From Isurus oxyrinchus (taxonomy: Eukaryota), in NCBI GenBank assembly GCA_026770705.1, contig JANJGN010000023.1:5766001-5830000 (forward strand): DNA of 64,000 bases. Reading direction: 5' to 3'. Below the pieces are notes generated by a model. It worked only from the letters and a program-made list of their open reading frames with translations, was not told the origin of the DNA and ran no database searches. Made by a program: the position numbers and the translations under genes. Each line of letters opens with the position of its first letter. The first letter of the stretch is position 1. Positions 477 through 60,990 of the stretch are shown in pieces.

Positions 477-661
477 CTGCCAGTGATGGACGGTCAACCT
501 GTTCGGGATTCTCCCTGCCCCTGAAACCCCAAGCACTATGTCACCCAGTAAACTTCCTCCATGGCTCGCTGGCAATCAAACGATATCAGTCAAGAAGACA
601 TTCACGTGACCCCGAGTCACCAATGGCAAGGGACCTCCTGATGTTAGTGAACTGTATGAGG

Positions 662-726
662 TGATCCATCACCGCGGTGACATTTACATCACAAAAGCTT
701 TCAATCAAAGTTATCCGCATCAATCT
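662..726 (-). promoter_or_regulatory. Hoxb1 rhombomere-4 autoregulatory element (b1-ARE)
   Basis: In gene orientation: AGATTGATGC (717-726), TGATTGAAAG (698-707), Sox/Oct-like CTTTTGTGATGTAAAT (682-697), TGATGGATCA (662-671). This is the R1-R2-Sox/Oct-R3 Pbx/Hox arrangement just upstream of Hoxb1. Confidence 0.9.
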
Positions 727-3700
727 GATAGCAACACTTAAACGTCAAATCGGTCTTCAAAAAAAGGGTTGGGGGGGTGGGTGGGGGGAGAAAGTTGGAA
801 TTATTCAAGATTGTCTTTAAAGTGTTAAAAAGATTTGGCCAAAGCGAGAACTACAGCTGCCTACAAACTGGGCATATTATCTTACTGAAGCACAACAGAG
901 CTCAAGTAGGTAATTTAATATATATTTCAATGTTTTATTTGAATAATACAGATAGCAAGGGAAAAACACGTGCTTTATAGGCGATTTGAGCAGTTTTTAT
1001 TTTAAAAATAAACAGGATAAAAGGTGCATCGCATCTCGTTTGACCTCGATTTTAAAATTCTAACGTAGATGGAAATTAATCAAACGGTAAGGCACGAGTA
1101 CAGAAAAATGTGTGGAGGAGAGGTTATAAAATAAAGTACCCGTTTGAAATAAATTACAATGGTCTTTTGACGAATGCTGTGGTGGATTAAAAGCAATGAG
1201 ATGTCCATATGATTTTAGGATATGTAATGTTTCTCATGGGATATTTGATAAAAGGTCTCATAACAAATGTAATACAGATGAATATTACCCTGTTAGAGTT
1301 GCATGTTGCTTAATTACCGTTTTATGTCCCAATTTTGTAACTCGCTGGGATATGCCGTAGAGTCATAAAACCATGGGTTAAATTTAGAATTGTATTATAA
1401 TAAAACATATCCATACAGTCATTTCTGTTCCTTCAGTGAAACTGTACAGGGAATTAAATGAAATACAAAACATTAAAAATACGATGTCAATCCGATAGAA
1501 TACTTCCCATATTTTGAGAGTTCAGCCAAAGATAATGTATATTTAAGAGGCTTATTGCGACGGTGTGGAAGTGACTGCCTTCCGAAAGTAATGCATTCAC
1601 TCAATTCATCAATAATATGATACATTCAAGAAAGTAAGTTAAGTAAATTATATGCTTTTGAATTTTAAAAACAATTTTGTTACAAAAAAACTTTGAGGTA
1701 TTTGTCTTATATACCCTTAGCCTTATCATAAAGTTTCTGGATACCTGTAATAGATGCAGTGCTGACAGCATTACGGGAGAAATCAGTCATCTAATTTCTC
1801 AATTGGTGCCATACATTACTTTCCAGCACTAAGACTGAAGTTTTGACGATTCTACGCGACGGAGGAGAGGGGGAGGGGGCGTTATTCAGTGGATCATAAA
1901 TATTTCCTCATCTAAAGTTTGAAATGCATCTTACCTAAGTCAGCAAACTCAAGTCAACTAAAAGTGGCAGAATAGCCTGACAAAGTGAATGGTGATTATT
2001 CATATTTTGGCGGAATTGAAGGCATCTCAAACAATGTCCTTCACAGTCGAGTTTCGCTAGCTGTCAGGAAATGTACTATTATCTCAACATTTAAGCACGT
2101 TTAATATGTTTGACATAATAAGATGGTTTTCCCTTTACATTCTGGGTTATCACATATATACACACAGTTTAGTGGTGATTAGCTAGAAGCCCGGGGCCTA
2201 CAATTATACTAATTTACTCAGTTAACAGAAAAAGATTAATTGTACAGTATGTGATGTGTCACTGTTGCACCTAGACATTCGAGCTGTTCGTCGTCCGCCA
2301 TCTGTTCGGTTCATGGAGAGCTTATATTTTCTACATAATGATACCTTATCACTGTCACCAAATTCAAGAAACATTATTTTTGCCTTCACTCATTCAGTCG
2401 GTGGATCCATATGTCAAAGGCAGCTCTGGCAGCGAGCAATTTAAATGTTTGATGTCAGCTCCATTTTGCTGCTGCTTATTATTGCATTCTTCCCTTTAGG
2501 GATGGTGGGGTGGGAGGGTGGTGGAGGGAGAAAGAAAAAAATGAGAGTGAAATAAGAATATAGATGAAGAAGTTCAGATACAAAGGGAGGAATGCGAAGG
2601 AAAAGAAATAGGAAGAAAAAGGGACAGGAAGTGAGAAGGAAAGGACAGACGACTAAGTGCTGAGAGAAAGAAAGATGAAGGTGTACAGAAATAAGTGAAA
2701 CAGAGAGAACAATAAAAAAGAGAGAACGAAAGCACGATGGTGCACGAAATGAGCTAGGGAGAGAGACAGGGAAGTTGTTTAAAGGACATAACCATCATTG
2801 AGTTATTTTAAACTGGACGACACTCGCAGATGTTACTTTAACTGTCAGAATTCCGAAAGAGACCCTCAATACCTAATGATGATCTACAAAAAACGCATCT
2901 CTGGATTGCGGTATAACATATAAGTATAAGTAGCTCAGCAAAGTTTTATGGCAGCAATGCCCCAAGCATTGCCATTTGCTGGGGTTTCACTGAACTCATG
3001 ATTTAACACGTGCTGACACAGGATTGTGACTGAGCGCCATTTATGCTGTTCATCTACCGGCTGCTTCTGCAGGGTGCCAGATGTAGCCAGTATTGACCGA
3101 ATAGAGGACCTCTGGCGAGTTAAACTTTTGAGTTAGTAAAATTGTACAACCACTATGAAGCAGAATGCTTTGCTCGTCTTCACTTTATTTGTTGCACTTC
3201 AAGGAAATAGATCTGTGTCTGACTATGCACCCACCGTGTAGCCTTACACCTATCATGAAAGACATTTAATTAATCACTTGAAAATAACTGTACTGACACA
3301 GATTACTTAATAAACTAGTAATTTCCATTTAAACTGACTGTAAATGGAAAGAAGGTGGTTGACGGAAATGAATAGTACTTTCAAGCCATACTGGATTGTT
3401 TATTGATTAGGATAGTTGGGATGCGGGTTAATGCATTTGATACCATATTGTGCAATATTAGTTACAAGCATTTAGCTGAAGTGAACTAAAATGCGTTCAA
3501 TTTTCACTGGTTCGGATTCTAATCTTTGATAAAAGCCAAAAATGTAAAAGCTAAGGTGCATTGCTACGCGAATCTTATCCAACTGGTCATAACCGCAACT
3601 ATATGTTCAGAATTCGTTTTCGCTCACTAAATGCGGAAGTTCTCTCATTGGCAATAACTATTTTCAATTTAGCAGAGAGACAGAATTGGCCTGATTCAGA

Positions 3701-6700
3701 ATTGGAGGACCGCTTTTTTAACGAGATGTTGCGAGTTTGATTTGCTCGCAGCGAATTACAGACGTACAGCATTATTAGCAAGACTTTAAACCTCTCTGTC
3801 AAAATTTTTAAATTGCAGTTGCAAGTGATTCCTCAACAATTCTTGATGTCGATCTCTTTCTTATTTCAACCTCCTTTAGCAATATCTCTGTGATTCGTTT
3901 CATCTCAATGTCTATCAAAGCTGTAGTGTTGGATTCAGTTTACCGAGAAAGGCTAATATCTTTTTTTAAAGAATTAAGAAATGCCTTCTTTGAGAAATAA
4001 AGAAAATGTATATTGTTTGTACCAAAGGCTTCACGACATCTTTTGTAATTCCATCTCTTTGCTAGTGCATCGAATTAGCATTGATACCCTGACGCCGTCT
4101 TCAGGGGGCATTGATGTCTGAGATACCACATGAGGCCCACCTGCCCTACTGAATAAGGGGTAAGACTGCCATGGCTCTAATCACAGAGTAGAGTTCAGTA
4201 TTTTTCTATGCCCCCCTTAGAAATCTTCTTCAGTACCCTGTTATCCCAAGGCTCCAATATAAACCAGATGTGAAGTCCCTTTGGGTCATCCTGTTAAAAT
4301 AATTCGAACATAGAAATGCAAGGGATCAGAATAATTTAAGGGGAAAATCTAGACAAAGGATCAAAGTCTATATGTATGACAAACTTGAAAACAAAGATAG
4401 GTGATGAATGAAGGTGAGATAAATGAAGAAGAAGTTACAACGTGGTTGCTAAAGGCCAGTAGATTATAAGAGGAAGGGAAGATCGAGAAAGAGCTCTACA
4501 GTTTTGAGGCCCTGGTAATGAATGGGTTAAAGAGCCGATGAGATTGTTAGAAAAATAGTGAGAAAGGCGAAATGCTGCATTGCTAAAGTTGGTGTCTTGT
4601 CGAAAATCTGTTGCAAAGCATTATTTTCAGGCAAAAGCATCTCGCACTTCAGTTGCCATAGCGACAGTGGGCTAGCAGTGGTTATCCATGTTCTAAGGTC
4701 TGATGGGATAGCTTATGTGCAAAGGTATACTTACCATAGTTAGTACTTCCCACTATATACAATGGGAGATGAAGTGATTTCCAAAAAAAGAACATTTCAA
4801 AAACGAGAAACCATGTGGTGTGTTGCAGGCTATAATGTTTGAGCCACCATCAATAGACGGTTCAATATAGATAGTTTATAGTAGTCTTTCACTCTTGGGC
4901 ATGATTTGTAGATTTCTGTGTAAACAACAGGCAGCCTCTTTAAAGCGCTATTCACTATATCCCAAGGCTTTTAAAGGTCTAATTTAGCGGCTAGTAATAT
5001 ACAAATCCAGTACCTGACATTTGTCATTCTGACTTATGTAATCGTTTTATTATTGACATTTAGTGTTTAATTGTTAAATTTATTACAGTATTTTTTTCTT
5101 AAATAATATTTAAGTTTTATTTCAGCCATCTGTTTATTGACTTCTCAGTTTTTAAGCCAGAGTACATGAAGAAATATGTCTGAATGATTGATTTTAAATT
5201 TATGAAATTGATCAGAAATTGACAAGTAGGAGGAGAAAAAAGGGATACACTATGTCTTTAAGGAAGGTCGGATTGAATGGTTAGGTCCCATTTATTAAGG
5301 CTGTTCTGTGGGCGTAGAATTGATTTGTAATTGTCACTGGCATGTTCCCTGGACGTGAAGCAAGTTTTACTGGTCATTATGCTATGTAAAGAGGCGCTCG
5401 TTAGAGATTTATATTGATACACGTCAAGGTTTGCACACGTAAGTTGAAGGAGTTTCTACTCAATTAAACTGCCATGCATTTATATTGGAATAAAGCAGAG
5501 CACATAACTCTATGACAAGGTTAAATCTTAGAATTTCTTAGAATGCAGTCTCCGCCCTCAGACTGCATTAAACACATGAACAGAATTCCTTGATTCAAGG
5601 ACGCCAATTTTGCAATTTGTTCTTAGGAACACTTAATAGGAAATGGAGCTATCTCTCGTCCTCACTGTTAACATGCGTCTATCTGCCTTCACCATTGTGT
5701 CTGTCTCTGCCTTTTTCTGCTTATTTCCATCTCTGCATATTTCCTATCTCTGCAGTTGCCCCGCACGTCCTGGTCTCAAACTTTCTTTCTCACTTTTTGT
5801 GCCCTTTTTGGTGTTATTTTTAAACCATTTATTCATTCTTTGTGTTTTTCGTTTTCTCTGTCCATGTCCTCTGTGTTTACTGTTCCTCACGATTCTTCGA
5901 TTTAGATCATTAAAAATGCGAAGAATTTTAAAGATACAGCACTAGCGTTGCCAAACGGAACATTTTCTTGTGTGATTTGCTTTTTTTTTGCATTGAATAT
6001 TATATCGAAAACTCATCGATTAACAAGACTTATGTGCAGTCTGTGCTGCAAGTAGTTTTGAGCAGGAGGCCTAGTTATTCCAATAGCGACAGTACTTAAA
6101 AGATGAAGCAAGGAACAATAAATGAAAAGATGAACGAAAGAAACCAGAGACAAAGGGGGACGGGGCGATAAGTTAAGAAATGATTCGATTTTGTAAGTGT
6201 TTCAAGGCATCTTAAAATCATTACGAAACAAAACTTGAGATTTTAAAACACAAATGAGCAGAGAACAAAAAGGTACAGATAAAAATACTGAAGAATAATA
6301 ATTAGCAAACAGTGAGAGTGTTTTGTGTCTTGCGCCACGGCGCCATTTTGAGGCTGGTGAGGCGGACCTGGTGATCCTGATACTTGCAGCATTTTCTGTG
6401 GATCATTTCCGAAGGCCCTACCAAATTTCTGCCTTTCTTGGGAAACACCCGTGACTAGGCAAATGCGTAATATGATTTATTTTTTTATGTCACTGCGATT
6501 GATTTCTCAAGATGACCCCCCTCATTCATAAAGCAGCTTGATGTATGAGTTTCAGCAAAAAAAAATTACATCTTGTAAATAAACCTCCCTTGGCAGAGCT
6601 TTGGAGGGGGTGGGGCGGAAAGTGGAGCACAATTGCGAACAAAAAATGAACTGATGATCGATGTTACTTATTTTCTGGCGAGTTGCGCGAAGCTTTCTTG

Positions 6701-10029: not shown

Positions 10030-10390
10030 CTGTCGGAGACTCCGCTGCTTGAGAGGACCCAGGGACCGGAGCTGATAATGACAAAGGTGTCTCGTTTTTT
10101 TTCGACGACTTTTTCTCTTTCATCCATGGGAACTCGGCCGCGGCAGCAGATGGGAACGAGCCATTTGGAGGCCGCTTTTCGCGACTTGGCCGCGGCTGGT
10201 TGCTGCTGGGATTCAGGCTCGGGATGGTCTGCTCAAAAGGAGGAGGAATTAGTGTCGAGTGTGAAAGCGTCGAGTTCTTGATTGATGAACTTTGAAATGT
10301 ATCAGCGACAGCAGGGAAGGACGTCAGGCACTCGGCGAGCGAAGGCTGGCTGTTAATAAAACCAATCTCTCGCTCCAATTCGAAATTCAT
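10030..10390 (-). CDS. hoxb2: Hox-B2 exon 1
   Basis: [28 protein letters not shown]...EFPWMKEKK. Donor ACAG|GTCTGC after 10030. 361+716 nt gives 358 aa. Confidence 0.94.
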
Positions 10391-11450
10391 GGCCTTCTTA
10401 ATCCCGAATGGAGAAAGTTATGAATATTGCCGGTCGAGAAAAATAATATTTTCAGGCTTTAATTCTGTATCTCTGATATTACAAGGCGTATGGGGACCGA
10501 CTCTATTAAACTGAGGACTAGATTGAAATTGGACCAAATTCGCTGTCACATGATTGGCGTTGCCCAATAGCAATTTGTTGTCTATGAAAAGAAATCATTA
10601 TCTCTGCAATTGATCCAAAAAAGTGAAGAAAAAATTCCACTTTATTTTTACTGTCAGAATTTTAAATTTACCTCCAGATTTGACCAACTCTTCTCGTGTT
10701 TTTTTCGTTATTTTTAAGAAGGCTGAATGTCGATTTTAAAAAAAATTCTGCTTATATCAAAGTATTTTGCAATTCAAGTGAAGACGATTTGCACCTAAAA
10801 TCTGGCGGCTTGAGTAATTAACAAGGTACCTCATTAATCTTCAAAGTTTTGACAAGAGGGCCAGTAACAAAATAGAACTTTCACAAGATCAGCCAGGCAG
10901 TTGCAATTTGCCTGTAGGAAAGTTCCAAACCCTTTAAATGCCCGTATCATTGGGCACAATTCACAAAATGTGCTTTTTCCAATTACCGAACGGATATAAA
11001 TGCTATTACAGTAGCTTTTCAAAGCAGAGAAGAGGTTTCTGAAACCAGGTAAGTATTGGATTTTAATTTGAGGAAGGCTTAAAATAGTGAGAAAACTATT
11101 GAGTAACCATTTTAGCCTATTTGATCTATTTATCCAGGAAAATAATGCTGCAACATGTTTCTATCTATCTGTTTATGTATCTATTCATTCATTCATCTAT
11201 CCCTCTATCTATCCAACCTTTATAGACAGAGTTTTCTTGTTGAGGGGTTGATTTAAAATTATTTTCATCCAAAAACTTGTTTAAAACTACGAAAGTTTAT
11301 CGAAAACTCATTTAAAATTTACTGCTTCATCAAAAACTTGTGACTGCGTGAAACGGAGCCATTAAAAAAAAGTTATTTAAAGACTAGCATGAGAGTTAGA
11401 ACAGAAATCTTTTTTAAACGCTGAACCCAAGGAGGGACTGAAGGCGGCCA

Positions 11451-16786: not shown

Positions 16787-17201
16787 CTGTGCTGGGACAG
16801 TTGTTATTTTTTTGCTTGGAGTTTTGCCGTGACTCTTTCATCCATGGGAATATCTGCTTGGTGAGGCTGGGTGTGGAGGTGTGGGAAGACTTGGGCAGAG
16901 TCTTGCTGGTGCCTGGTTGTGTCGAGTTGTTGCTGGGATTTTGGGGAGGTGAGACAGGTGGAGGTTGGCGGTGCTCGGGGAGATTCGAACGCATGCAGCT
17001 TCCATTGATGTCTTTAGATTTGGGATGCGGAGCACTAGTGCCAGCTGGCTGAAGGGAGCAGGCCGACCTCTGGTAATCACTTTCAACGTGAGAAGATGGT
17101 GGATAGGGTTCCTGCGCCACTTCATAGCTGAAACCATTTGCTCCTTGGTATGTGTATCCACCGAATAGAGTACAGTTGTCGTAGTACGTCGTTTTTTGCA
17201 T
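16787..17201 (-). CDS. hoxb3: Hox-B3 coding exon 1
   Basis: MQKTTYYDN...YQRSACSLQ...[17 protein letters not shown] at 17201, donor ACAG|GTACAC. 415+770 nt gives 394 aa. A probable 5' UTR acceptor (ttttcttccAG) lies at 17499-17500. Confidence 0.95.
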
Positions 17202-20200
17202 CTCGCAGTTTCCCAATATTTATTTCACAAACTGTCAGGGTCCTTGCACCCTTATCGAATAACATTGGCACCCCGATTCACGTGACGTTTTCTTCCAATA
17301 GCCTCCTGGCAGTTGACCTAAGGTTAGAAGAACCACAGAATAATAGTGGAACGTGTGTGGATCCATCTTACATACTCAAAAGCAAATGACATGAATAGCG
17401 TTCACCAAACAAGCACAGCAGATGCCACGGCTGATCTTGATTCCGGCTATTTTGGACTGGAGAGGAGGGGACGAAAAAACACACTCTTGCACTGAGCCCT
17501 GGAAGAAAACTAAAAAATTCACATAGCCAACTGCAAAACTATTTTAATCGAGATCAGATTCAGCATTAGCTCACAGCTAAATTCTTTTGGTTTAGGCAAT
17601 GTTCCAAAAATGATAATTATTTATGAAAAAAAAACTTCAGACAAACTCAGATTGGGTATCTTAGCCGCGAGTTACATAAACTTTCACAACCAGTTCAGTT
17701 AAAATACACACAAAACATCGTTACATTTCATTTCATTGCTCCTTGCTTGATTAATTGTCATGCTGTCAATATTCTAGATTAAAAATCTGACCTACCGCTT
17801 AAAATTAGGTTTACATCTATTGTTATAAAACGGAGCTGCCAAAGTATCAACATTTATAAATGTGCAGCGTTCATGGCGGGATGAGATTTCCCCTGCAAAC
17901 ATCTGGTTTAAATAGAAGGAAACTTATGGATGTTTCAGTAGCTATGTATTCAAACTCTAATCCGAAACATACTTTTATAGCCACCATAATTTGTTGGTTA
18001 ACGCGGCAATCTAGAATTTATATCTCCTAACCTTTTTACTGTTAAGAGCCAGCACTGAAAACACAGGAGAAAATCACAGATAAAAAAATCATAAAATGAG
18101 ATAGCGCTGAGAAACAACACCCATTTTACATACACAGCAATTAGACTCTCTTAACCATTTGGCTCGATTGTTTTCTGAATATATACACATATGTATTTAA
18201 CGTGTCTGTTTAAAGTGTATACTTTGCCACGGTGAAGGTAAGGAAGTAAGTGCGCTTGTTTCTATCTTTCTCTGTCCATGTGTAAACTGGATATGTTTTT
18301 GGACGGCTCATGCTTGGCCTTGCGGCGATATTTTAGGACTCTTTTCCTCCTCTCCGCCACAGCTTTAACTATTCATGATGGATCGGCAAAGTATTTCAAA
18401 CCTGAAATACAGGGGATTGTGTTCTCCATGACCAGAATTTGAACCTCTCTCTTAACCAAGAGACAAAAAGGATAATAGGTACTGTCTTGGAAGGTGCTCT
18501 ATAATTTGATGTATGAGGGGTCAGCAGACCAACAAAGATTTTTTTTTCCTCTGGTGAAAAAATGCCCAAGGACTCCCGGAGCAGCTCAAACACGGAGAGT
18601 CAACCGCGAGACACCCCCGGCACAATCTCCATGCTGCTAAAATGCGCAGAGTTTTCATTTCTGCTCTGCACTCGCACATCGTTTTCCACTTCGTGCTTGA
18701 AGTACCATTCCACTTTGACACTGTTTTTAAATGATCCGAAGCGCTTGCCAGAATTGTGAAGAACGCGACCAAAAAAAAAAAATCGGCGAATATGTTCGAG
18801 AACCAGCCAGTTCTTTTGTAAACTTGCACGATTCCTCTCTCTCTCCCTCTCTGTCTTTCTCTCCAAAAACTAGTTATTTTGAAATATCAGTTTTGGTATC
18901 TGACATTGTTTAAAGATATGTGAAGCAAAATTATTAGAATAGATGCAAACAACACAGTCCAAATGCTTGCTTGTCTGTATCTCATACAATACTTCTCACC
19001 ACGTTAAATATGATTTAACATTTATAAAGACGTTAATGCTTTTTACTGTTTGTATCAGCGAAATGTTCACTATCAGACGATTCGGCATTGGAAATGTATG
19101 AAAGATCTGTCATTGTGAAAGAGGGAATTAAAATATGTTCGCAAAATCGATGTTTGCTTCATGGAATGTTTATTACGCTTTCACGCTTTGCGTAAAATTA
19201 TATTTAATTTATTCGGTATAAACTATCCAAGTAAAAGGTTGGAAAATGTATTTAAAAATCAAACAAAGCATCCAAATGAATGCACATTTCTGGAAAAGCA
19301 AACCGAATGGGTTTGCTACAAAATAAAACTCCGTCGTCACGGACTACCTGTTTCGAAATATATACTTTAAAATATAAAATCGAATTTTATAATTCCGTGG
19401 TTTACGCTTCTGCTTATTTGCACATCGCGAGGCTGCAGCCGGTTGTCGGATATTATCTTTGTTCTTTAAAGCATGGCCAGAGTTCCTAATTATTTACAAT
19501 CAGAAGATAAAATTAACAGTGAAATTTTCGGCTTTGCGTTCAAAGCCGGACAGAGAAATATCCTTTCCACCCTTTGCAACAGAGACAAAGCGTTGCAAAG
19601 TTTTATTTACCTATGTAAACATACGCAAAATAATAAATTCTAAAATAAATGACCAGCCTTCAGATGGGTGCTGCACTTAAGGAAGCTGTAGACTGTAACG
19701 GAGTTTAAGCGTACTAATAAAACTAGAATTTTACAGCAACATAGATGAATGTTTCTATTTCAAATGATGCTTCTATAAATAGAGAACAGAGCCAGGAAAA
19801 AGTCAGGCGTGCTCCAGTCGCCGGTTGCCACCATGTTTCGGAGAAACACAGAGGCTTGAAGAGTAATATCCTAAGATTTCACTCTCCATAATCCCGACAC
19901 GCTGTACCTGCATATCTCAAGTCCTTACAGAATTAAACAAGCGAAGGGGCATTTGATTGTCCAATATGTGTTAAATATACAGAAAACAAACATCCTAGCT
20001 AATGGGACAACAATAGGGGAAGTCGTCATACACCTTAAATTATAGAGCACCGCAAGACGTCCACGTAATTATGTCTTAAATCACAACTGAGAGCTTGGTT
20101 TTGAAAAATACTCCAAATTAGCCCCCCAAAAAGGCCCAAGAACCGGGCTCCGTGTTGAATTCAGATGCAATGTGAAACAGTCGCTGCGTGAAAGGAAGCT

Positions 20201-37216: not shown

Positions 37217-37622
37217 CGGCGTTTATATGTAATTTCTTCATCCACGGATAAACCACAGGCTCTTTGGAACATGGAGTGTTTTGGTTGCTGAAGTTCTGGC
37301 TGCAGGAGGGCGGTGGGCTTGGAGTCACCGAGACACACTGGTGGCCATGCTTGGCTAAGTGGTTCTGCAGGCCGGTCTGCGATTGTACGTGACCCCTAGG
37401 CGCCACGACTTGCTCGCCCGAGCCCTGGAGGTTGCTGCAAGAGGAGTAGGGCTGCTCGCTGTACGCTGACCGCGGGTACATCGCCTCATGCTGGAACCCG
37501 GGCTCCCGTGCCCGGGTAAAGTATTCCGGAGAATGGCTTGGTAGGTAATTGTTCTGTGAATACTCTTCACACGGTGGAAATTTAGGGTCCACATAGTTAG
37601 AATTAATCAAAAACGAACTCAT
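37217..37622 (-). CDS. hoxb4: Hox-B4 exon 1
   Basis: MSSFLINSNYVDPKFPPCEEYSQ...KEPVVYPWMKKLH. Donor CCG|GTGAGT. 406+320 nt gives 241 aa. Confidence 0.95.
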
Positions 37623-37693: not shown

Positions 37694-37755
37694 CCCTCCT
37701 ACTTTACTGTCAAGTGAACAAAGTTAGGCGTTCATGTGACACCGGCAGCCAATGG
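37694..37755 (-). promoter_or_regulatory. HoxB4 proximal promoter (NF-Y CCAAT box, USF E-box, conserved PG4 5' block)
   Basis: CCATTGGC (37748-37755), GTCACATGA (37732-37740) and TTTGTTCACTTGACAGTAAAGTAGGAGGG. Confidence 0.75.
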
Positions 37756-39004: not shown

Positions 39005-39092
39005 TGTCGACTACATACTCCCCTAGATACGAATTTGTGACCACAACTTTGTCAACACAAATTCGGATCTACAGGGTATATATAGAGGACAG
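39005..39092 (-). ncRNA. mir10a: pre-miR-10 (miR-10a type) hairpin
   Basis: Mature 5p UACCCUGUAGAUCCGAAUUUGUG at 39056-39078 and 3p CAAAUUCGUAUCUAGGGGAGUA at 39016-39037. The arms pair and the position between Hox4 and Hox5 is canonical. Confidence 0.97.
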
Positions 39093-44200: not shown

Positions 44201-47200
44201 CAACACCAAGTCACGCACGACGTAAACTTTTGACCCTCCACTTTTTGACCCCTTAGCTATAATGCTGTACTAACAAGCCCCCATGAACAGTTTCAACATC
44301 GCAATCCTCAGACAGTATTGCTGTACAGTTTTGTTTTTACCCCCACGAGGCTCGATTTTGTTTTAACTTTAGCGCTGCTTCACTTAAGACATATAATTTA
44401 GAAACCGAAAGATTTTATTGAGACACTGGAATTTCTTGAAAGTTGGGTTTGAACTCTTCAAAATTATATTTTTTTCTTACCGGCATTGTTTGAATGAATT
44501 TATATCATTATTCGTCAGGAAAAATGTACAAACTGAAAGGGTGAGTTTTGAAGAGACAAATGACTACAGCACTTAGAAACTGCTGATAGTGCATAAGTAG
44601 AACATTTTGGGGAGATATCAGACAGACTCCTCCGACTCTGTTCTGCCAGATTAACTGCAATGGAAAGGCTGGTAAGCGTTGTGGCAGAAAGGAGACGTAT
44701 AATGACTATGAACTTGGTCTGAAGCGGGCTCTGGTGGCGGATCCGACACGTTACATGTGTAAAATAACTCCCCAGATCCTGTTCGTATTTATTTCAAATT
44801 CTGCTTATAAGTCCGATTTTTATTGCGGCAAAATATCTCAAGTTGTTAGTTGCAAAAGTTTTTTTTTTCGAAACCATTGTCAGTTTTTCTGTTCTTTGCG
44901 TTCCGTGTGACGTTAAGCTGGCAGTAATCGTGTCTTGTTTAATAAAAGCGGAGTACATTTAATATAGAGAAGCAGGTCATCAGAACAATCCCTCAAGAGA
45001 TGAAGCATTAACAAGGGTTTTATATTATCTTTGTCATCAGATTGCTTAATAATTTTGGAATCTTAAATTCAATGCAAAATTAAATTAAACCAAATTCAAT
45101 TCAATTCAATTAAGTCATCGTCTTGTTCTTTAAACGGTGGAGAACGAATACTGGATAAAACAGTTTGAGATATTGGTAGTAGTGTTTTCAAACTAACCGA
45201 GTAAGATTTTCTGTTGCAAAATGTCTCGTTCAATTGCATAGCAAATGTCAGACATCAACCTTTTTTAAATTTAAATCAGGGGTTAAAAAATCTTCAGGGC
45301 CTGTCTGCCATAAAAAAACAAAGCCTTTTGTAGAGTATGAGAATTATTATGTTGCCTGATACCAATTATATTGTGGTTTATAGTTTTTTTCTTTTATTTA
45401 ACACTTTATTAAGTGAAGGAGATGCATCAAAAATAATAGTGCTCTGTAATTTAAGATCTCACCTTATGCCCGTGTTGCATTTAATTAGACTATGATATGT
45501 ATGCTGGCCTCGCTTAGGTCGCACGTTCTGAAACAGGGTGCCGGTTTATGGCCTAAAGTGATCCCAGTTACTAACGGTTGAAACAACGGAGTAGAGTTAA
45601 TGATAACGTGTGAGATATGAATGCTTTTATCTATGTGTCTGCAACTAGATGTTTAATACGACAATATAATCATCTGACACCTTTATGACTCCGTCGCGCG
45701 TTTGTGTGACTGCCTTTTGTTCCCGTTCCCCCTAAATTACAACCTTAACCCAGTCCTCCTATCCATTCAGTGCCCATAAGAGCACCAAATGCATGCCACT
45801 TAAAAACCTTAAAGAAAATACATCACCTTTAGACTGTGCAGTTAACCTGATAGGGATGATTATCGATCCTGTACGTTTCTGTGGAACAGATAATTCTCTT
45901 GTGATAGTATCAGGAGCAAATACATCTGTGTTAGAAGGGGAAAGAAACAACACCACTTTCCCTGAAACTAAATTAGTTGTGTTACAGTTGATTATTGATT
46001 CACACCATAAACGCTGGTGCCCGTGTTGATCTACAAAGAGGGGGAGAGGCCCGGTAACCTTAAATAGATTGGAAATGAGTGGGAATGGTTATCTGTGTTT
46101 TAGAATGAATTATGAAATATTTGCAATGATTTTTCGCCCTAGCAGAGTTAGCTCCAATTGGAAACCAATCAGCATTTTTCTACAATAGGGAACATTCCAG
46201 GCTACATACATATTTGGTGCTATTAAGCATTTTGTTTCTTACACTCAACTGCAACATTCTTGGTCAGGTTTGATTTAGTTTAATTATGTACCAGTATCTA
46301 CCAAGAGACCGTAGATTCTTGTCTATTTCTGTAATTATTTATGCTCTATCAGTTTCTTTCTTACACTAATCATAAACTATTATGCTAAAGTATTTCCTGA
46401 GCATCCTGTCTTTAAATCAGATTGAAGAATTTAAGTGAAGGGCTAAATGTAGGACCCCATCAAAGCTGAAATGAATAGAAGTTGGTTGGTGACGTAGGAA
46501 GTGGATCTGAAAGTGACAGGTTATTTTATTGCGGAGAAAAACATTACAATATTGCAAAGAACAGGTTTATCCCAAACTCAAAACCTTGACCCAGTTTTGT
46601 TGTAATCCTCTCACATGTGAAATACGTATTTAGAAATTGGAAAAAATAATTGCATTAATTGTTTCTATCTCCCATTTTACGACAGAACATTGAAGAATAA
46701 TCATTCAGTTTCACCGAACACTGAATAAAATGAGAAATGAAACGCAAGACCACAATGTACTTCCTCCATCAGGGATGTGTTTTCCTGTTTACCCATTGGA
46801 TTTCCTCAGCTATCAGCGCGGAAAGGCAATAAAAAAGATGACAGAAACACTTCGACATTCTGAGAGAAAAAAACTTTGACTCCTAACATTGATTTAAAAA
46901 GCTCCCTCCCCCGCCCCTCAACTGCACAGCGGAAGCGGCGAGAATTAAAAACTTGACGGATTCGAGGACTGTGTCACAACAATGATTATCAACGGGTGAG
47001 AAACTTGACATTTACTGATGAGAAATGTCAAACTATAATTTTCCTCTTATGTATCTACATTTCTCCTTAGACTAGTTAGTGACTACACAAGTAATCTTTA
47101 CAAAGAACCTCAAAATATGCAGACAATTGTCAGATTATCATGACAGGAAGTCCATTACAGTAAGGGTGATACTCTTGATAAGCACTGTAACATATAGTAA

Positions 47201-50200
47201 GTGCCGTGTATAAATAAAATCTAACTAAATTATAAAACGTTAGTCCATACTTGTTTCGGGTAATTCTTTACTGTAGGATCAAAGGATATCTGTTTGTATT
47301 AAGAATCTCTTTAGCCTAACAAATTGATATAGCACCCATTCCCCTGTCTCTCACTTCAACTTGAAACCCCAAAGGAAACATTTTCGTATAAAAGTCTGTG
47401 CAACGTTCAATTAGTCGTACTTAAGAGTCACATTTCAAAATGATGACATTTATAGAGGCTAAAAGTCTATAATTCAAAACTGACAGCATTGAAAAAGTTA
47501 AAGGCTATAATTTAAAAGTAGTGACTGGGTCTCGCGTATGAATCCCTATTGCGGGAAGTATGGCGCACTTAATAGTTTGAAAATATTTTACTAGTTCATC
47601 AAATTTTACAATTAGCGATGGGTGTAAAAGATGCCTCTATCCACTTTTAGACATTTGTCTTAGGCCGTCTAGTGCCTGTTCCTTTGCTCACCTTGAAGGC
47701 ATTATGAGTTCTAAAAGAGTTCAGTTAGGCCAAGGTTCGGAACCACAGCCTAACTAAAACCTACTGATCCAGAGTTGAAAACAAATTTGCGAGATACCGA
47801 AGGTGAGGCAGTGGGGAAGGTGGGGGCGGGGTGATAGTTTAATCACAAACTATCATTAAGGGTCATTTTGAGATTAGACTCCATGTTAACAAGGCTGCGT
47901 TTAAATAGAGTCCTTTCTTCATTTTAACTTTGCAAAGTCTTACAATACGATTACAAACATATATTTGAATATGCCTTCTTTTAAACAATAAAAACAATGG
48001 CGATCAATTTGACTCTTAATTCAAAAAGGCATGTGGTTATTATTCCTTCGGCATTCAATTAGTGGGGTGGTTAACATTCGGAACACTAATAAGCCAAGGA
48101 AGTGCTTTAAAAATAATATAAAGGTGTCCTTGACTGCACACGGCCTTCCTCAAAAGGCCGATTTCCTTTTTAAACAATATATGTAAATAAACTACAAAAG
48201 ATTATATTAATCCACACGGGACAGTGTTGAACTGCCCGTTTTCCAGCAGAATGATTTTTCCAGGAAATTGCAAAAACGTTGTTAATATTTTGAAAATAAG
48301 ATTAAACTAAGATAGAAACGAAGAAACTGCATTGAGGCTGAGCTACATTTTGTACCTCGACTATTAGCAAGAGTAAAGTTTACATTAACAACTAAAACTA
48401 CGAACATGTTTGAGCATTCCTGGCCCACCTTTGCTCACAGCTGAACCGTTCAAATTCATATTTATTTTAATCTTTGCTCCGAATCAAAGATTAACAAATC
48501 AAGCTCTAGAATCAAAGCAAATTATTGTAATTATATTAAATACATAGAGGAAACGAATTTTCAACCATGCGATATGTATAAAAGAAACTCAATGTCAACA
48601 CAATTAAACATCAAGAACATTTAAATCTACTTAAGTAAAATAATCAGGCGCTAGGAACGAGGCCCATTAATCCCATCCACCAGATCTTACTTTTTTTACA
48701 CTTTGGGCTCGATGCACTGTTTAAAGCATAGAAAAAATATATTCGTAAAAGCTAAAATCTTTGCACTACTGTCAATTTATCATTTTTAAAAGTTTTTATT
48801 TCATTTTGGAAGCTTCCCTGCGTCCTGCTGTCAGGAACCATACGCGCCCTGCTTTATAGTTCGTCGTAACTTACCTTGAGCTGTACAGTTCCATATGATT
48901 TTAACTGTAGTCAGTAAAGATTTTGGAAACTACAGGTCTGGTAAAAGAGTCCTGCTCGATTCCTCTGGAAGACTAGCCACATTATATGCTTACAGTCTCT
49001 TCAAGCCCAGTCAGATAAAGTTCAGCGTCACTAACATTATACAGAATGTGAAATATATTGTACCTTGTCAACTCCCCAGAACCATAAAACTAACTTTAAC
49101 GACCCCACGTGACTTTTGAGAGCCAGTAGGGGTATCTGCCTGCGGTATGGGCGATTTTTACGATCTAACTTTGAGATAAATACCCAATTCATTTGACATC
49201 CCAATGTCATACCGACTTCTTGTATATGTAGTTTGTTATATTCACAAGGGGAGCAGGCACTATGCAGGATAGACCTAACATTTGCTGTGTGACTTATCAA
49301 CTACCGATAAGCACTTGGACGTTCTTTTGGTAAGTTGAGTTTAAACTAAACTAAGGGTTACCTGTTGCACAAAAATGAAGCCAGATTTACAAAAGGAACG
49401 CGTATAGTTTGTCATGTAGACAAACTTGAAACAGTACACCTTGTTACTGTACAAGTCTCTTGGGGCATGCCGCAGAAATCAAGTCCGAGACACCTTTTTT
49501 TTTCAAAAATACAAGACAACAGTGAATAGAAAACAATCTTGTTGAAGTGCTTAACTAGAAGATGGCGGGTTCAGTTAGATCCAGTTGCCAGAAGTCAAAT
49601 CACATAAATACCGCCTTTAAATACAAACGAGCAACTCAGCCGCGTAAGCAAAACAGCAAGGGTTAGGTAAGGTTTAGGGATTAATCTGAACGATTAACTA
49701 ATAGAGCCAGGTAATGTTTCCTTCTAATAATACCTTATAGAAGTAATTACCAGTAATAAAACGAGAAGCAATCAATAGATATTCAGCAAAATTCACAATG
49801 TACGCCGTTAAAGTACATTTATAAAACGCACAGTACATGGAGTTAAGGTATCACAAGACACGTAGCAATATTCAAATATAACACATCTGATAATATTTAT
49901 TGTACTAGATACTAACAATAAGTATTCTCCAGATGCAGTAGAACGCATTGCGCTGGGTAATAAGATGCCAACCTATTTACAGTCAACATATTACACTTCA
50001 GAGATTAGGGGTGGTTATGAGAAACTTTTACTTTATTTCGAATTAAGCTACAAACAAATACAAAAAGCTTGTTGGCAACATACTGTAGGACCTAAACATA
50101 GTTGTCGTTCACTTCCACAGAAAATATGCCATTCATCACTCTGCCCATTACAGACTAGCTATAGGCAACATTATAAACTTTTTTTGTATTATTTACAACC

Positions 50201-51732: not shown

Positions 51733-52267
51733 CATGGCCAATGTGCAGTTTTCTCATCCAAGGAAATATTTGTGGCTGCTGTTCTGGTGTTGTTGCTTGT
51801 GTTGGTTCTTGCTGTGCCCTGGGATGGTTGTTGTTGTTGGCTGGAGTGCCCTCTTCGGCATCCGAGGATGCTCCGGCCTCGTCCATTTCTGTAAAATTAC
51901 TTGCTGAACTAGAGGAGGTAGTCGGGTCGGATGGGGAACCCTTGACTCCGTGACTGTCCTTGCCGGAACAAGGAAGGGGTTCTGGAGATGAGAGGGTGCA
52001 GCTCGCTGCTTGCCTGAACCTGGTTTCTGTAGCTGGAGGATAGCTTCTGGACTTTTCTGTATTAACCACTCCAAAGTGGTTAGATGAGGCTGAACGGGTG
52101 ATGCTAAGGTCCATACCATTGTAGTTGTAGCCGTAAGTGCCTGAATGCATGGTGCCTGAATCCCTGTATGGTCCGTTCTCGGAGCTGCTCGTCCCATAAT
52201 TAAGTAACTGATAATCCGGGCCATTTTGATAGCGACCGGAGAATGAGTTTACAAAGTAAGAGCTCAT
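51733..52267 (-). CDS. hoxb5: Hox-B5 exon 1
   Basis: MSSYFVNSFSGRYQNGPDYQLLNYG...YGYNYNGMDLS...QIFPWMRKLH (SFSGRY and YQLLNY are B5/C5-type, not A5). Donor ATG|GTACAC. 535+251 nt gives 261 aa. Confidence 0.95.
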
Positions 52268-52299
52268 TTGGGTTTTTTTGGGTTGATTTGTGGTTGTTA

Positions 52300-52500
52300 G
52301 TCGTTATAACCCAGTCCTGCACGATTTATGATATATTAATGAATTATAGAAATGACTGTACTTCGTTCGCTTCTATGTATGCGGCCAAATATGGGGGGTG
52401 CGAGTCGGAATCACGTGCTTTTGTTGACCAGTCGTAAATTCTCACTGATGACCTCAAGGGGTAATTCATGCTCTATGGTTACAAATAATGACGATCCGAG
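52300..52500 (-). promoter_or_regulatory. Conserved Hox5 promoter/5' UTR block
   Basis: Dense Hox/Pbx-type motifs (TCATAAATCG, TTTACGAC, TAAT cores) and an E-box CACGTG at 52412-52417 directly upstream of the ATG. Confidence 0.6.
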
Positions 52501-52551
52501 AATCGTTACGCCATGTGAATGCAAGGTTCCAAATGGTGGCCAGGTTTGCAG

Positions 52552-54675: not shown

Positions 54676-55107
<432 letters not shown>

Positions 55108-55565
55108 TTAAATTACTCAGTTTCATAATAAACTGTTTGATGAGCACCTTCGATCCGAAAACACTAAATAATGATTTCCATTCATGGTATGGTTACATTC
55201 TGTTCGATTAAGGCTTTATAACCGGTGGGCCTGTTGGCTGTACAGTAAAATCTTTATGAGAAGAAAAGTAACAGATCGTGCCTCATATTTAAAGGTCAGC
55301 ATTGCATTTTATATACATATACATATTAATCTCCTGTATCAAACGTCGAGTTTCAATGAATTATTCAGTATCTCAAAATATGCAGCAACTCATAATTTAA
55401 TGTGAAAGGTATTAAAGAAATAACCGAACGTTGAATTTTCTTTTCTAAGAAAGGGGTTTAAGGGTTTAGCTGCTCATCTCTTTCTTGCTAAGTTCATTGT
55501 AAACTTGCATTAAAAAGTTTTTTCCAACAAATATGTAAAACAAAAAGTATAAAGTGTAAACTTAC

Positions 55566-55998
55566 CACCACTGGAGTTCATTCTCTGCATCCAGGGGTAC
55601 ACGGGGAGCGAACTCTTCTGATCATCCGCCTCGCCATATAAAATTCTGTTTTGTGCACTCTCGAATTTGCGTTGTTCGGGGTTATAATGCGTTGGATCTT
55701 CCAGTGAGTGGTACTTGGAACTGTTGGAGGAGGCGCTGCATGAAGGGTCTTTTTCCCGATAAAAACTAGGGGCACCGTAATCACAGGGTGTCCGGTTGCA
55801 CCCGTATGCTCCGTTGGCTTGCTGGTAGTAAGAGGGTGACGGGTAGCTTTTATCCTGCATGCTTGTAGCCCCATATGTGGCCGGGTAGTGTCTTAAAGGG
55901 TCGTAACCGGATGAATATAACGGAATCTGCCCAAGGAATGACTCTTGCCCACTGGCAAGAGTCGCGGGGAAAGTGGAGTTCACAAAATACGAACTCAT
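55566..55998 (-). CDS. hoxb6: Hox-B6 coding exon 1
   Basis: MSSYFVNSTFPATLASGQESFLGQIPLYSSGYDPLRHYP...PVYPWMQRMNS (B6-type). Donor GTG|GTAAGT. 433+260 nt gives 230 aa. Confidence 0.95.
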
Positions 55999-58900
55999 TT
56001 GTTGGCTGTGCTCTGTTATGATTTGTTGTGTATTAGTCCAAGTGCCTGTGCTATTAGCAGTTAGCGAGATGGGTTTGATTCGGGATGGCCAAGTGCCAGA
56101 AAGGACAGCAGGAAATATAACCATCTGATCATCGACTGACCAATGGCAATACTGTTTGATAGGAAAATAGCACCCATGAGGGACTTATCCATGAATCAGA
56201 GACGCTAGCAGAAACCGGCACATGTGATGGGAAAAAGTCCCAAACATAGAGAGAAAAAAAATCAACAGAAACACATAACCTTCAGATTCACTCTGTACTG
56301 AAATGAATCAGATGTATAAGAATGCTTGAAGTTCTGCATCTGTTTAAGCGCTTGTGCAAACAGCTAAACAATTTGCCCACTCAAACTAAACAAACAAGCA
56401 AAATAAAACGCCACGCAGTATCCGTGGATTCAGATAATAACGCACTAAACACTTATTAACTCAATTTTATTGCTTTCTCCTTTTTCAATCGGAGGTCGGT
56501 TTTATGTTTCTTGCTGGTCTGGCTTGTAATATGATTGTGAAATTCAAGATGCATTCGGTACGTTTTACATATAAGATGTTTCCAGCAATATTTCCAGCTC
56601 TGGATAATATTCACCATAATAGTTTCGTTCGCATATTGTGCTGAATGTATAGAAATATCTCAGTGGCTTGTATATCATGCACTCCAGAGTTCCTGATAGT
56701 CGTTTGTTGTGCTTGTGTTACAGTTTTCTCTCTGTGTAAGAATGTGGTTCAGCGATGCGGTTTAACTTTGAGGCACCAGAAAAGGGGATCAAAACACGAA
56801 CTTTTAATCTTTAATTGAAACCACAAAACGAACGGAAGAAACTTTCCAAAAAGAAAAGGCAACTAAACCAAACACCCGAAAGGGAATCATCAGCGGAGTA
56901 GGACGCAGAACACTCACTGCGAGGAACCTCCAATTTTATATTTTAACATTTCCGGAATAACACCTGTGAAGAGCATGTTTAAAGAATGCTATAAAAGGCA
57001 AATACAGAACAATGCAGAAAATAGCTTAAAATTCATTAAAAGCCCAACCCGTTAGACAATTGCCGCCTTTGCAAAGTAAAACGTTAGTTGCGTCCAAAAG
57101 CAGCAAGAAGGACTTTCGCTGACTGAAGTGTGGAGATATGTAACTGTTTATCTCAGTGAGTACACAATTGATAGACTAGTTCCGTGTTTTTAACATATAG
57201 GTATGAATATTATTTAAAGTCAGTTGTGTTAAGTACTTCATAGATAGCTGGGCGATATTCAGGACTGCACGAGGTGGAAGCTCCTACATATTCAGATGGG
57301 TGCGCAGTACTTCAGATATCATTGAAAGTTTGTTCTTCCGATTTCTGTATTTCATATTATGTTGTACTTTTAAACTATGCCTTATATAAATAAAATATTT
57401 TGCATTGTAATATTTGAATTTCGTAACGTGTATTTGTTCAAATTTCAGCCGTTTTACGTTTACCGCTTTAGATTTACTTGTGAAATTCACCATACGGTAT
57501 TTATTTTAAAAAATATACATATACGTTGTGTCCGCCTGCGTGATTAGCGATTTCTTTAAAAAAATAATTTTAGCCATTTTCATTTTATATAAAAATGCAT
57601 AAATATATTTTGAATAGATATAATTATTTTACCATTTATAACTATTAAATGCTACAAGTGTCAGAGAGTTTGTGTTGGACTTTAAGGATTTATTTTTAGC
57701 AGTTCCTCTGGAAGGCATCACTTCCTGGTTTCAAACATCTGTTTCAAAGAATCATAAACTGATTAGTGAGCACATGGCAGAAATTAAAGAAAGACTCCTG
57801 TCTTGGTACTGGCTCATTTTCAGAAGCGGGGTTGTTTTCTTGTTCGAGAAACATGGTGGTTTGAGCATGGTGAGAGAGTATAATTAAAGGAGAAGTGGAT
57901 AAACTTTTTCCACCTGAGAGAGTCCCAGTTTGGAATTGCCTGTGAATGCGGCCAGTCCCTAGATTCAAACCAAGTGTCTCCAACGTAAAGCAGCTGCTTT
58001 TTAAAAAAAGTCATTGTTCTAATTTCCAAGGAAACTTTGAGCAGTGATAAGAAGGATTTGGATTCACTTTGCAATCTTTCAAAGAACATTAATATACGGG
58101 GGCAACCGATTCAGATCAGTTGCTATCTGATGTTTAGTTTATTTTGCTAAACCTTCCTTCTCTTCTTGCTTAGGCACTTGACCCCTAAGTACACATTTTT
58201 ATTGTAACTTTAAATTGATTTTATTTCACTTTTGCTTTTATTTTTAAAATGATTGATATTGCATGATATTATTGCCTTGAGCCTTGTAAATTAAAAGGGT
58301 GAGTTCCAATCAATGTACGTTTATTTTATTTATTCATAATTATGCAAAAAAAATAAATTCAAGAAAATAGATGTAGAGTTCTAAAGCCAGACGTGACAAA
58401 TATTGTAACTTTGACTTATTGGGAGCACAATTATTCCAATGTTGGGTTTCCAAGAAACGTAATAGTTGTCATTTAAACATGCATATGTTTCCATCTGAGT
58501 TTTAATTACTGAATAAGATATATTTTATAAAATAGAAAATTTTATATTTGCTCATTTCACCAAACGTTTTAGGTCTAAGTCTTAGTTAGATAGTCCTAAC
58601 CACCCTGACTATGTTCCCTTTTACTGACCATCGAAATCGCCATTTACTTTTGGTGTCAATTTCAACATACCTTTGTCAGGAAGAGGGTATAAAATCTTCT
58701 TTGAAAGGGTGGGAAGGTAAAATTAAATGGGGTGGTGGAAGTTCTGTGAATCGTGTTTATTGTTTATACGTCGGGACATTAAAGGCAGAAATTCGTTTGT
58801 AACCGGTCTGGTTACGCTACAAATGAAGGGTCATACACATAACAGAACTGACTTGCAGCATTGCTATCTGTCCAGGGATGCATAGCAAATTCGGGCCTTG

Positions 58901-60367
58901 CTAGCAATTTCCTGCTAATCGGATGTGGCCAGGAATTTACTCCTATGAGATCGGTTTGCACAGGAATTTTACAAGTCTCAGCTGCAGATTAATCTTGACA
59001 CAAAATTCGATTTCACCAATACCCTTTCGTCAACAGCATTTCTATTTAATAAGAATTGGCTACTATTAGAGAGTTTGGGATAGAGTCCCTGACCATCACA
59101 ATGCATTTACATTCGGACACATCTCTGCGTCAAGGTTACAGTGTATTGTATCTCTTCTTTTACATATACTCGGAGTTAATATTTTTCATTGAACAGAATC
59201 GCCAATGAAATAAAATCACAAACGTTCAAAGCTCGATTGTACTTAGCGCAATTGTTGCATTGAGAGAGACAGAAATAAAGGGAAAGCAAATATGTAACTT
59301 GATAAAAGAGCAATAATGAAAATCGCTGCGAGCTTAGAGATTTATTGATATGCACATATATATAATCCGCATGCACCCACACACACATTGACAATATACA
59401 TCATCGTTGCTCGTTTATGCAGCAAATTCTGCAGACAAAAAGCAGTTTATCCCCTTTGCTCCTTATTTTCCGACTTCCTCGGCCGATTGAAACGCAAGGT
59501 GGCAGCAGAGAGCAACAAATCCCGCCTCCTCACCCAGCAACCACCGCTACCCCCCCCACCCCTCCCCCCACCCCTCCCCAGCCCTCACCCCCCCAACAGC
59601 TAAAACGCTGATAGATTTATATTTTATCAATGCAGAACTACTGGGCCTCTTGGTTGCTAAACATTCTAAACCACGGTCAACTAAACGCCATCTTATATTA
59701 TATCATCGGACTGTTATCCACTAACAGTGTAAGCTGAAACCCTAATGCTGTCCAACAGAAAAAAAACAACTGTCGCATATTGTAAACGTTTGAATTTGTA
59801 ACTCCAGCATCAAGTGCTCGGCTTAGATCAAATTATTAACAATCGTGAAGCACAATGGAAGGAAATATTACTATTACAACACAAATAAAATACGTCAGTG
59901 CGTCAGCCTCGGTAACATTGCCCGTTCTAATTGCTGTTCTGGATAAGATTATTCACGTAATGAGCGACCCTCGAGAAAAGATTAACAATCGCGAAGCTCA
60001 TTTAACCTTACAATGTAGAAAAATTCGTCCCCGAACACAATTATAGGTTTGTCAACACACCACAACTATTCTGGATAACTGGTTCCCTAATTATATAACA
60101 GACCCGTGAAACAGAATCGCTTGCGGAAAAATAGCAATCCCAAAACTTGCGGTCTCCCAGTTAAATTGAAGAAATAACTTTCCACAGCTCATTCAAATTG
60201 CAGTCTCTAAACACAGATTCATTAGAATAAAATGCAACAAATATATTTTCTAACTGACGTCAACAAGTCCCTATTTTCTGTGATATCTTTCGCTGAAATT
60301 CTGGACAAAATCATTTGATACAATTATTAAAAATCAATTGGAAAATATGTCCTAACATTCGTCTTAC

Positions 60368-60820
60368 CTTTGCAACAGCTTCTGTGATTTTGTTTCGATC
60401 ATCCTTCTCTTACTTTGGAACCAGCGCGATTTTTTTTCACGAACAATATTGTCCCAAACTGATAGCCGTCGGTTAACCTGCGGCCGCAGACTAACCGGGG
60501 TTCATGTATCAGTCATTTACACGGAAATCGGAATTCGAGCCTCTTTGAAAAATGATATCATCCACATCATTGAGATTTGCGCCACTCCATCCATTGCTGA
60601 AATTCCCAATCGACAGACAAGTGGTAGATTGCAAAAAAAAGTCTTGTTTACTTTGTGTGCGTGTTTGTGTGTGTGTGTGTGTGTGTGTCTCTGTCTCTGC
60701 CTATGTGTGTGTTTGCACCTCCAATAGTAACTATCAAAGTTTGAAAAAAAAAACCTATAGAAGCCCTGAGGAGGACACAGGACCGACCCAAGGTACGGTG
60801 GCCAAAAGAATACTGCAATA
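60368..60820 (-). other. Putative distal non-coding first exon of HoxB6
   Basis: Begins just downstream of the 6|7 conserved promoter block and ends at donor GCAAAG|GTAAGA (60368). Internal blocks (GCAGTATTCTTTTGGCCACC...GGTCGG...TCAGGGCT; TTGGGACAATATT) resemble the mammalian HOXB6 5' UTR as I recall it. Confidence 0.55.
60654..60712 (+). repeat. (TG)n microsatellite
   Basis: Pure TG repeat at 60666-60688 with degenerate flanks. Confidence 0.9.
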
Positions 60821-60829
60821 TACTCACAT

Positions 60830-60990
60830 GGGAAATCATAAAAAGTTCATGTTCACGGTTGCTATCCACATGACCGGCAGCGGCCAATCGAAGGACCGAT
60901 CCACTCATAAAGTTCTATCACAAAGTTGTAAATTTTCATAAAACAACAAGGAATTTATTGCATTTCTTCATGACTACCAACAACAGCCCC
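60830..60990 (-). promoter_or_regulatory. Highly conserved Hox6|7 intergenic element (distal promoter block)
   Basis: Clustered TTTATGA/TTTACAA/GCAATAAA Hox-Cdx sites, a CCAAT box and an E-box. TCACAAAGTTGTAAATTTTCATAAAACAACAAGGAATTTATTGCATTTCTTCATG is recognisable as a conserved vertebrate Hox CNE. Confidence 0.7.

Follow-up and report, generated by a model that had tools for sequence, protein, structure and literature searches.

Do the genes of a Hox cluster, whose regulation has mostly been studied through enhancers and chromatin domains, also share one type of promoter? The question is raised by 64,000 nucleotides of the Isurus oxyrinchus genome (contig JANJGN010000023.1, positions 5,766,001 to 5,830,000; hereafter the window), in which an E-box is repeatedly followed, 10-12 bp further on, by a CCAAT box. 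The window extends from HoxB1 through the HoxB7 homeobox exon, and the translations place every gene on the minus strand. An initial annotation had proposed the pair as a cluster-wide promoter grammar. The reading that we favor, with a probability of roughly 0.8, is that this module is a shared proximal-promoter element bound jointly by NF-Y and a USF-type basic helix-loop-helix (bHLH) dimer; the distribution is observed, and the binding would follow from mammalian work.

The module in the HoxB window

The start codons of HoxB1-B6 lie at 476, 10390, 17201, 37622, 52267 and 55998 on the minus strand, and the gene labels of the initial annotation agree with the translations. All eight E-box/CCAAT pairs that it listed are present with exactly the letters, coordinates and gaps claimed. 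Read along the genes, each consists of ATTGG or ACTGG, a gap of 10-12 bp and an E-box, the end of which falls 77-156 bp before the ATG of HoxB1-B6. Two pairs are orphans, lying between HoxB5 and HoxB4 (5-4) and between HoxB7 and HoxB6 (7-6).

603..624, minus strand: HoxB1 module, ATTGG-n11-CACGTG (CACGTG 603-608, CCAAT 620-624); E-box end 126 bp before the ATG at 476
10528..10568, minus strand: HoxB2 module, gap 11 (CACATG 10547-52, CCAAT 10564-68); 156 bp before the ATG at 10390; a second CCAAT lies 14 bp from the E-box on the opposite side
17264..17299, minus strand: HoxB3 double module, ATTGG-n10-CACGTG-n10-CCAAT (CACGTG 17279-84, CCAAT 17295-99); 77 bp before the ATG at 17201; preceded, about 20 bp upstream, by a pyrimidine tract and AG that resemble a splice acceptor
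37733..37753, minus strand: HoxB4 module, gap 10 (CATGTG 37733-38, CCAAT 37749-53); 110 bp before the ATG at 37622; corresponds in position to human HXRE-1/HXRE-2
49106..49127, no strand assigned: 5-4 orphan module, CACGTG-n11-CCAGT (CACGTG 49106-11, CCAGT 49123-27); in an element common to HoxA and HoxD
52412..52432, minus strand: HoxB5 module, ACTGG-n10-CACGTG (CACGTG 52412-17, CCAGT 52428-32); 144 bp before the ATG at 52267
56122..56144, minus strand: HoxB6 module, ATTGG-n12-CAGATG (CATCTG 56122-27, CCAAT 56140-44); 123 bp before the ATG at 55998; E-box not of the USF type
60867..60888, minus strand: 7-6 orphan module, ATTGG-n11-CATGTG (CACATG 60867-72, CCAAT 60884-88); in an element common to HoxA and HoxD

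That the same module stands at all eight sites holds with reservations. The CCAAT pentamer is intact at six of them and reads CCAGT at HoxB5, at 49106 and at their paralogues. A USF-type core (CACGTG or CACATG/CATGTG) occurs at seven; group 6 genes have CAGATG, CAGCTG or CAGGTG, and HoxB6 is admitted only through its loose E-box, CATCTG. The claimed order, always E-box first on the plus strand, is true of the eight listed sites, but two minus-strand matches also exist, namely the second CCAAT across the HoxB3 E-box and a weak match at 2832. The list covers 8 of 11 plus-strand matches, and the others (6781, 23151 and 63615) are weak and about at chance level.

The excess over background that the initial annotation expected is present. 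Specifically, the loose motif (CANNTG-n10-12-CCA[AG]T) was counted 11 times on the plus strand, against a mean of 1.87 and a maximum of 6 in 200 block-wise dinucleotide shuffles of the window, and twice on the minus strand, against 1.9. With strict E-boxes (CACGTG, CACATG or CATGTG) there were seven plus-strand matches and one minus-strand match, against 0.27 in shuffles (maximum 2). Across about 434 kb of HoxA, HoxB and HoxD loci, strict matches numbered 14 at gap 10, 13 at gap 11, none at gap 12 and 0-3 at each other gap from 0 to 30. In the 27 strict matches at gaps 10-11, the E-box lies 5' of CCAAT on the CCAAT strand, which is the order of the composite element. The helical interpretation of this spacing failed: the site centres are 15.5-17.5 bp apart, or 1.5-1.7 turns, and therefore the two factors would not share one face as one-turn spacing implies.

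Altogether, 30 strict composite E-boxes were found, of which 20 stand before an ATG, six are orphans, one belongs to a HoxD7 relic and three are unexplained. Composites without a promoter explanation include G000:C14:70902009, 3' of the D1 homeobox, and G000:C3:151641024, in an A3 intron (G000 being the I. oxyrinchus assembly).

Held-out Hox genes and homeobox controls

The 4.98 Gb assembly contains 11 HoxA genes, HoxB1-10 and 13, and HoxD1-5 and 8-14, all named from their translations; we take this set to be an elasmobranch-type complement. Two further, divergent Hox genes lie on small contigs. The cluster-wide scope of the module was borne out in the 13 held-out genes of groups 1-7, every one of which carries it in the same orientation, with a gap of 10-12 bp and within 250 bp of the ATG (A1-A7, 7/7; B7; D1-D5, 5/5), to make 19/19 with HoxB1-B6. 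The HoxC6-like gene has it about 207 bp upstream, so that all 20 group 1-7 genes examined have the module 60-210 bp before the start codon. A single E-box is flanked by CCAAT on both sides in A3, B3 and D9.

Posterior genes are more varied. Among 16 genes of groups 8-14, an exact flipped copy occurs in A9, D9, C9-like, A13 and B13, with D9 carrying both orientations. Flipped copies with one mismatch occur in B9, D11, D12 and D13, and D10 has an anterior-type copy with a gap of 9. Under a relaxed rule that allows flips, one mismatch and gap 9, 10 of the 16 genes score, against 4 of 32 controls. In group 8, a scan of as much as 4 kb before each gene (B8 and D8) gave no strict composite at any gap of 5-20.

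The controls were non-Hox homeobox genes only. A start codon could be assigned in 32 of the 39 loci first fetched and in 12 of 20 more, and the set includes both Gsx, both Pdx, three Cdx, two Evx and a Meox. No composite lay within 250 bp of the start in either batch (0/32 and 0/12, together 0/44); one lay within 600 bp, and 3/32 had one within 1 kb. Taken separately, CCAAT was present in 20/32 controls and a strict E-box in 8/32. One Vax-like control has a loose match just past the chosen start; were translation to begin at the next ATG, this locus would count. The three Cdx genes (L081, L082 and L083) share, 100-260 bp upstream of the ATG, an ordered set of their own that is not the Hox module: an octamer-like ATGCAAAT, a TGACGTC word and TGGTTAAT/CGTTAAT.

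One module on nearly every Hox unit, and not on the ParaHox and other homeobox genes tested, is a small editable target for asking how far enhancer sharing and collinearity depend on promoter type.

The divergent Hox6-like (L094, G000:C5061) and Hox9-like (L037-L038, G000:C3247) genes are probably HoxC. Both are GC-rich, lie on small repeat-rich contigs and retain the module; the first exon of L094 shifts frame in this assembly.

Origin of the module

Inheritance through the tandem duplications that built the cluster, which had also been suggested, is plausible, and the evidence on it is divided. Anchored flank identity is 0.571 within paralogue groups and 0.257 between groups, against 0.259 in a shifted null, so that flank homology between groups was rejected. 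Long divergence could have erased the flanks, and their failure to align is compatible with descent. The positive evidence comes from arthropod-type Scr and Dfd leaders. One metagenome scan gave 80 Hox loci, of which 24 had a recognisable first exon and at least 150 bp upstream; 56 were dropped, and 22 leaders remained once two near-duplicates were removed. Four of these 22 protostome leaders have the strict module in the anterior orientation.

L138 and L143, Scr-type: gap 12, at -177 and -182
L140, Scr-type: gap 11, at -536
L122, Dfd-type: gap 13, at -148

Gap 13 was admitted after L122 had been seen; at gaps 10-12 the count is 3/22, all Scr. Shuffles expect 0.08 leaders with the module, and 0/300 reach four and 1/300 reach two. 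By type, the module is found in 3/6 Scr, 1/3 Dfd and 0/13 other leaders. The best match of L138 is fly Scr (E 1e-46). L122 is labelled Dfd for the motifs that it has in common with group 4 and for an arthropod signature; a search for a Dfd entry found none. These contigs look like spliced transcripts, many protostome Hox leaders may be long enough for the promoter to be missed, and the set consists of Hox leaders only.

Once the module was left out of the comparison, the best alignments of L138 and L143 to any of 67 upstream regions of the I. oxyrinchus genome were those to A5 and B5 (3/150 and 0/150 shuffles reach the score); the two leaders are related, and therefore their group 5 alignments count as about one observation. 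A TAAT-rich leader motif at L138:455-477 and L143:412-452 corresponds to A5 (-91) and to window positions ~52320-52350, with 19/20 identical letters between L138 and A5. Under the same exclusion, flank similarity to orthologues was not significant for L122 (Dfd; 31/150 shuffles) or L140 (Scr; 119/150). A word similar to the TAAT-rich motif also occurs upstream in L163.

Repeated gain by convergence, in which selection within a clustered locus covered by Polycomb favored the same permissive type of promoter and the module was not copied with tandem duplicates, is a serious alternative with a probability somewhat below even; it concerns the origin only. It would account for the unrelated flanks, for the different orientation of anterior and several posterior genes, for the absence of the module from ParaHox, Evx and Meox genes and from 18/22 protostome leaders, and for orphans that carry it without a coding gene. 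Against it stand the common orientation before Scr and Dfd types and the group 5 affinity of the two Scr leaders downstream of the module. Moreover, a single E-box lies between two CCAAT boxes in group 3 and D9, and either half could survive.

We tentatively consider the opposite reading, to which we would not give even odds, that the module is the ancestral Hox gene promoter. It would have been copied with each tandem duplication before the protostome/deuterostome split and have outlived lost genes, as in the HoxD7 relic; possibly its starting form was symmetric, CCAAT-E-box-CCAAT, with one half retained by anterior genes and the other by posterior genes. Bilaterian-conserved promoter segments (PMC10735318) are likewise developmental, conserved between vertebrates and protostomes and rich in CCAAT and E-boxes, but in the available text Hox leaders are not among the named segments, and 'Hox' appears once, in a reference. 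If the ancestral-promoter reading is true, all Hox units have one compatible promoter type, a missing piece in shared-enhancer action and collinear opening. The module may be regulatory DNA that predates the bilaterian split.

Predicted binding and mechanism

Cooperation between NF-Y and USF was reportedly described by Zhu in 2003, according to papers that cite it. Earlier publications cover the NF-Y/USF composite with its spacing, as well as its use at HOXB4, HOXB7 and Hoxa9. In human cells, the E-box position of -12/-11 relative to CCAAT was confirmed for USF1 as well as for MAX, and chromatin that is unmodified or marked by histone H3 lysine 27 trimethylation (H3K27me3) can be bound by USF1 and by NF-Y alike (PMC3730095, PMC4889920). 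The order, the 10-12 bp gap and mostly the cores (GT/AT-CACGTG/CATGTG) are the same as here; unlike that composite, the Hox module covers nearly a whole gene family in fixed orientation and includes CCAGT and CAG[AC]TG variants. As the initial annotation had stated, USF/NF-Y action at HOXB4 is published: mutation of the human sites (HXRE-1/HXRE-2) reduces activity by 60-98% (PMC2193192), and USF1 recruits SET1A to HoxB4 (PMC3675019). In addition, promoter activity of Hoxa3, a5, a7, a9 and a11 falls on E-box mutation (10.1101/2022.02.10.479744). These papers, with the Hoxa9 CAAT box and the chromatin immunoprecipitation of USF2 and NF-YA at HOXB7 (PMC5223348), deal with the same genes and motifs and tested promoter function in mammalian cells. 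They treat single genes or HoxA E-boxes, and their available text contains no statement of a spaced, oriented group 1-7 module, of a posterior flip or of absence from other homeobox genes. Our literature search, with thin coverage of subscription journals including older Hox footprinting, found no paper stating a cluster-wide, oriented, Hox-restricted module or its presence at Scr/Dfd. The composite is known, and its family-wide scope is apparently undescribed so far.

By analogy with mammalian work, NF-Y would bind CCAAT, and a bHLH dimer would bind 10-12 bp 5' of it. Together they may prevent closure of the start site, even where chromatin is repressed, and bring in the histone H3 lysine 4 methylase SET1A, as reported for HOXB4. 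Each Hox unit would thereby receive the same permissive socket, and position-specific enhancers would choose where each gene fires. The bHLH partner probably varies among copies (group 6 has CAG[AC]TG), and it is doubtful that USF reads all of them.

Several observations weigh against joint binding at a shared promoter element. Group 5 and the 5-4 orphans have CCAGT, although NF-Y is described as depending critically on each of the five bases of CCAAT (PMC3730095), and group 6 is without a USF-type core. USF1/2 knockdown left the Hoxa3, a5, a7 and a11 reporters undiminished (10.1101/2022.02.10.479744). B8, D8, A10, B10, A11 and D14 are without the module within 300 bp, even with one mismatch allowed. 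The A, B and D paralogues arose by genome duplications and are not independent, which leaves group 7 as the sole wholly new anterior-type group in the held-out test, and the control start codons were assigned by eye. Some copies are transcribed, because an acceptor-like site precedes the module in group 3 and the contigs that contain the protostome copies resemble spliced transcripts. Finally, the read contigs described below cannot show transcription starts, and the one adjacent to 49106 begins 85 bp away.

The same picture could arise without joint binding from two common promoter motifs that act independently, one for NF-Y and one for various bHLH factors, the grammar then being old paralogue conservation seen through a flexible motif definition; we regard this as improbable. 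It draws on the separate frequencies of CCAAT and strict E-boxes in controls, on the USF knockdown result and on a motif defined on groups 1-6 that admits CCAGT and any CANNTG, and at human HOXB7 one pipeline gives a spacing of 21 bp (PMC5223348). However, the gap peak is sharp across nine groups with non-aligning flanks; group 7, the flipped A9, D9, C9-like, A13 and B13 copies and the protostome copies played no part in the definition; and the controls gave 0/44. In human promoters, E-box and CCAAT motifs tend not to co-occur (PMC6238301).

It is very unlikely that the conserved letters act in RNA (as a leader or like an internal ribosome entry site, IRES) or as enhancers: the modules lie within 200 bp of the ATG, with group 3 and protostome copies inside apparent transcribed leaders, but cap analysis of gene expression in mouse shows short leaders, e.g. 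83-85 nt for Hoxa9 (PMC8892498), the Hoxa regions act as promoters and require the E-box, the orphans have no nearby ATG, and the module works in either orientation. The shared-promoter reading also supports a promoter interpretation of the disputed Hox 'IRES' regions.

Orphan elements and long transcripts

Both orphans recur in the same interval of HoxA and HoxD, within alignable elements. The module had been expected to predict unannotated start sites. By position the orphans do coincide with promoters, but these starts are already described in mammals and zebrafish, and therefore the orphans are not new start sites. HOXB-AS3 starts about 900 nt 3' of HOXB5 and has promoter sequence in common with HOXA-AS3, a similarity that extends to elephant shark (PMC8330917). 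HOXA1, HOXA-AS3, HOXA7 and HOXA9 are bound by USF2 (PMC7599066). Zebrafish hoxb3a splv2, the host of miR-10c, starts 3' of hoxb5a (PMC2148072). The distal D2 promoter of mouse Hoxa5 has its start at -8905 and drives reporters (PMC2868907); the HoxA paralogue of the 7-6 element lies 8.5 kb from the A5 ATG, near the D2 start, a positional match.

Read contigs came from 4/22 runs, which were only guessed to be RNA; they cover 6.7 kb without the 7-6 orphan and HoxB5/B6, and their strand was inferred from GT-AG ends.

46686..46995, plus strand: exon within a spliced antisense transcript, with GT-AG junctions to 37540 and 56724; contigs of 3/4 runs (X11: 3' side only)
49212..49329, plus strand: antisense exon that begins 85 bp away from the 49106 module; GT-AG splice to 56724; one contig, 1/4 runs
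48869..48878, minus strand: splice-donor-like AAG/GTAAGT, with the 49106 E-box about 230 bp upstream; likewise present, at about this distance, in the paralogous HoxA and HoxD elements
39010..39085, minus strand: miR-10 precursor (Rfam RF00104, E 1e-18), downstream (minus strand) of the 49106 module

As with HOXB-AS3, a spliced antisense transcript runs from just 3' of Hox5 into the Hox6-7 region, and the promoter is similar in HoxA and HoxB. The 49106 element is likely the promoter of HOXB-AS3 and of the long Hoxb3-miR-10 transcript. It is likely a two-way promoter, because the antisense transcript fits HOXB-AS3 and zebrafish hoxb3a splv2 starts 3' of hoxb5a. The donor-like site is predicted from its letters to end a sense non-coding first exon; over this exon, at 48875-49050, none of the read contigs lies. 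Likeness to the HOXA-AS3/HOXB-AS3 promoter, the hoxb3a splv2 start and Hoxa5 D2 lies in the same intervals, paralogous conservation and the spliced antisense transcript. Those papers, in the parts available, note CDX sites or a TATA box, and here there is the module; the match is by position, with no sequence alignment to mammals. In the main text of PMC8330917 and PMC2868907 the terms E-box and CCAAT have 0 occurrences.

A long antisense isoform combines window positions 37480-37540, 46686-46995 and 56724 onward (plus strand), and its upstream exon overlaps HoxB4 exon 1.

Relics and minor observations

The module also locates relic genes, as well as shared promoters of long transcripts. A HoxD site 2 kb past the D8 ATG (L027, G000:C14:70954111-70954266) has the module and one more E-box, and 96 bp of it match the A7 leader. 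Its downstream sequence matches the leaders of A7 (E 3e-5) and B7 (E 1e-4; both in a local database), with the ATG and any coding match absent. Judged by these matches, the site is a relic HoxD7 promoter and leader. For HoxD6 and HoxA8, blastn and tblastn found no relics. A flipped strict module also occurs between HoxA13 and HoxA11, where A12 would stand (L012, G000:C3:151729480); as a relic of the lost A12 it was rejected, with no alignment to D12 in DNA or protein.

Rfam HOTAIRM1_2 matches window positions 6353-6576 on the plus strand (45.1 bits, E 0.007), between HoxB1 and HoxB2 and thus in HoxB, not HoxA.

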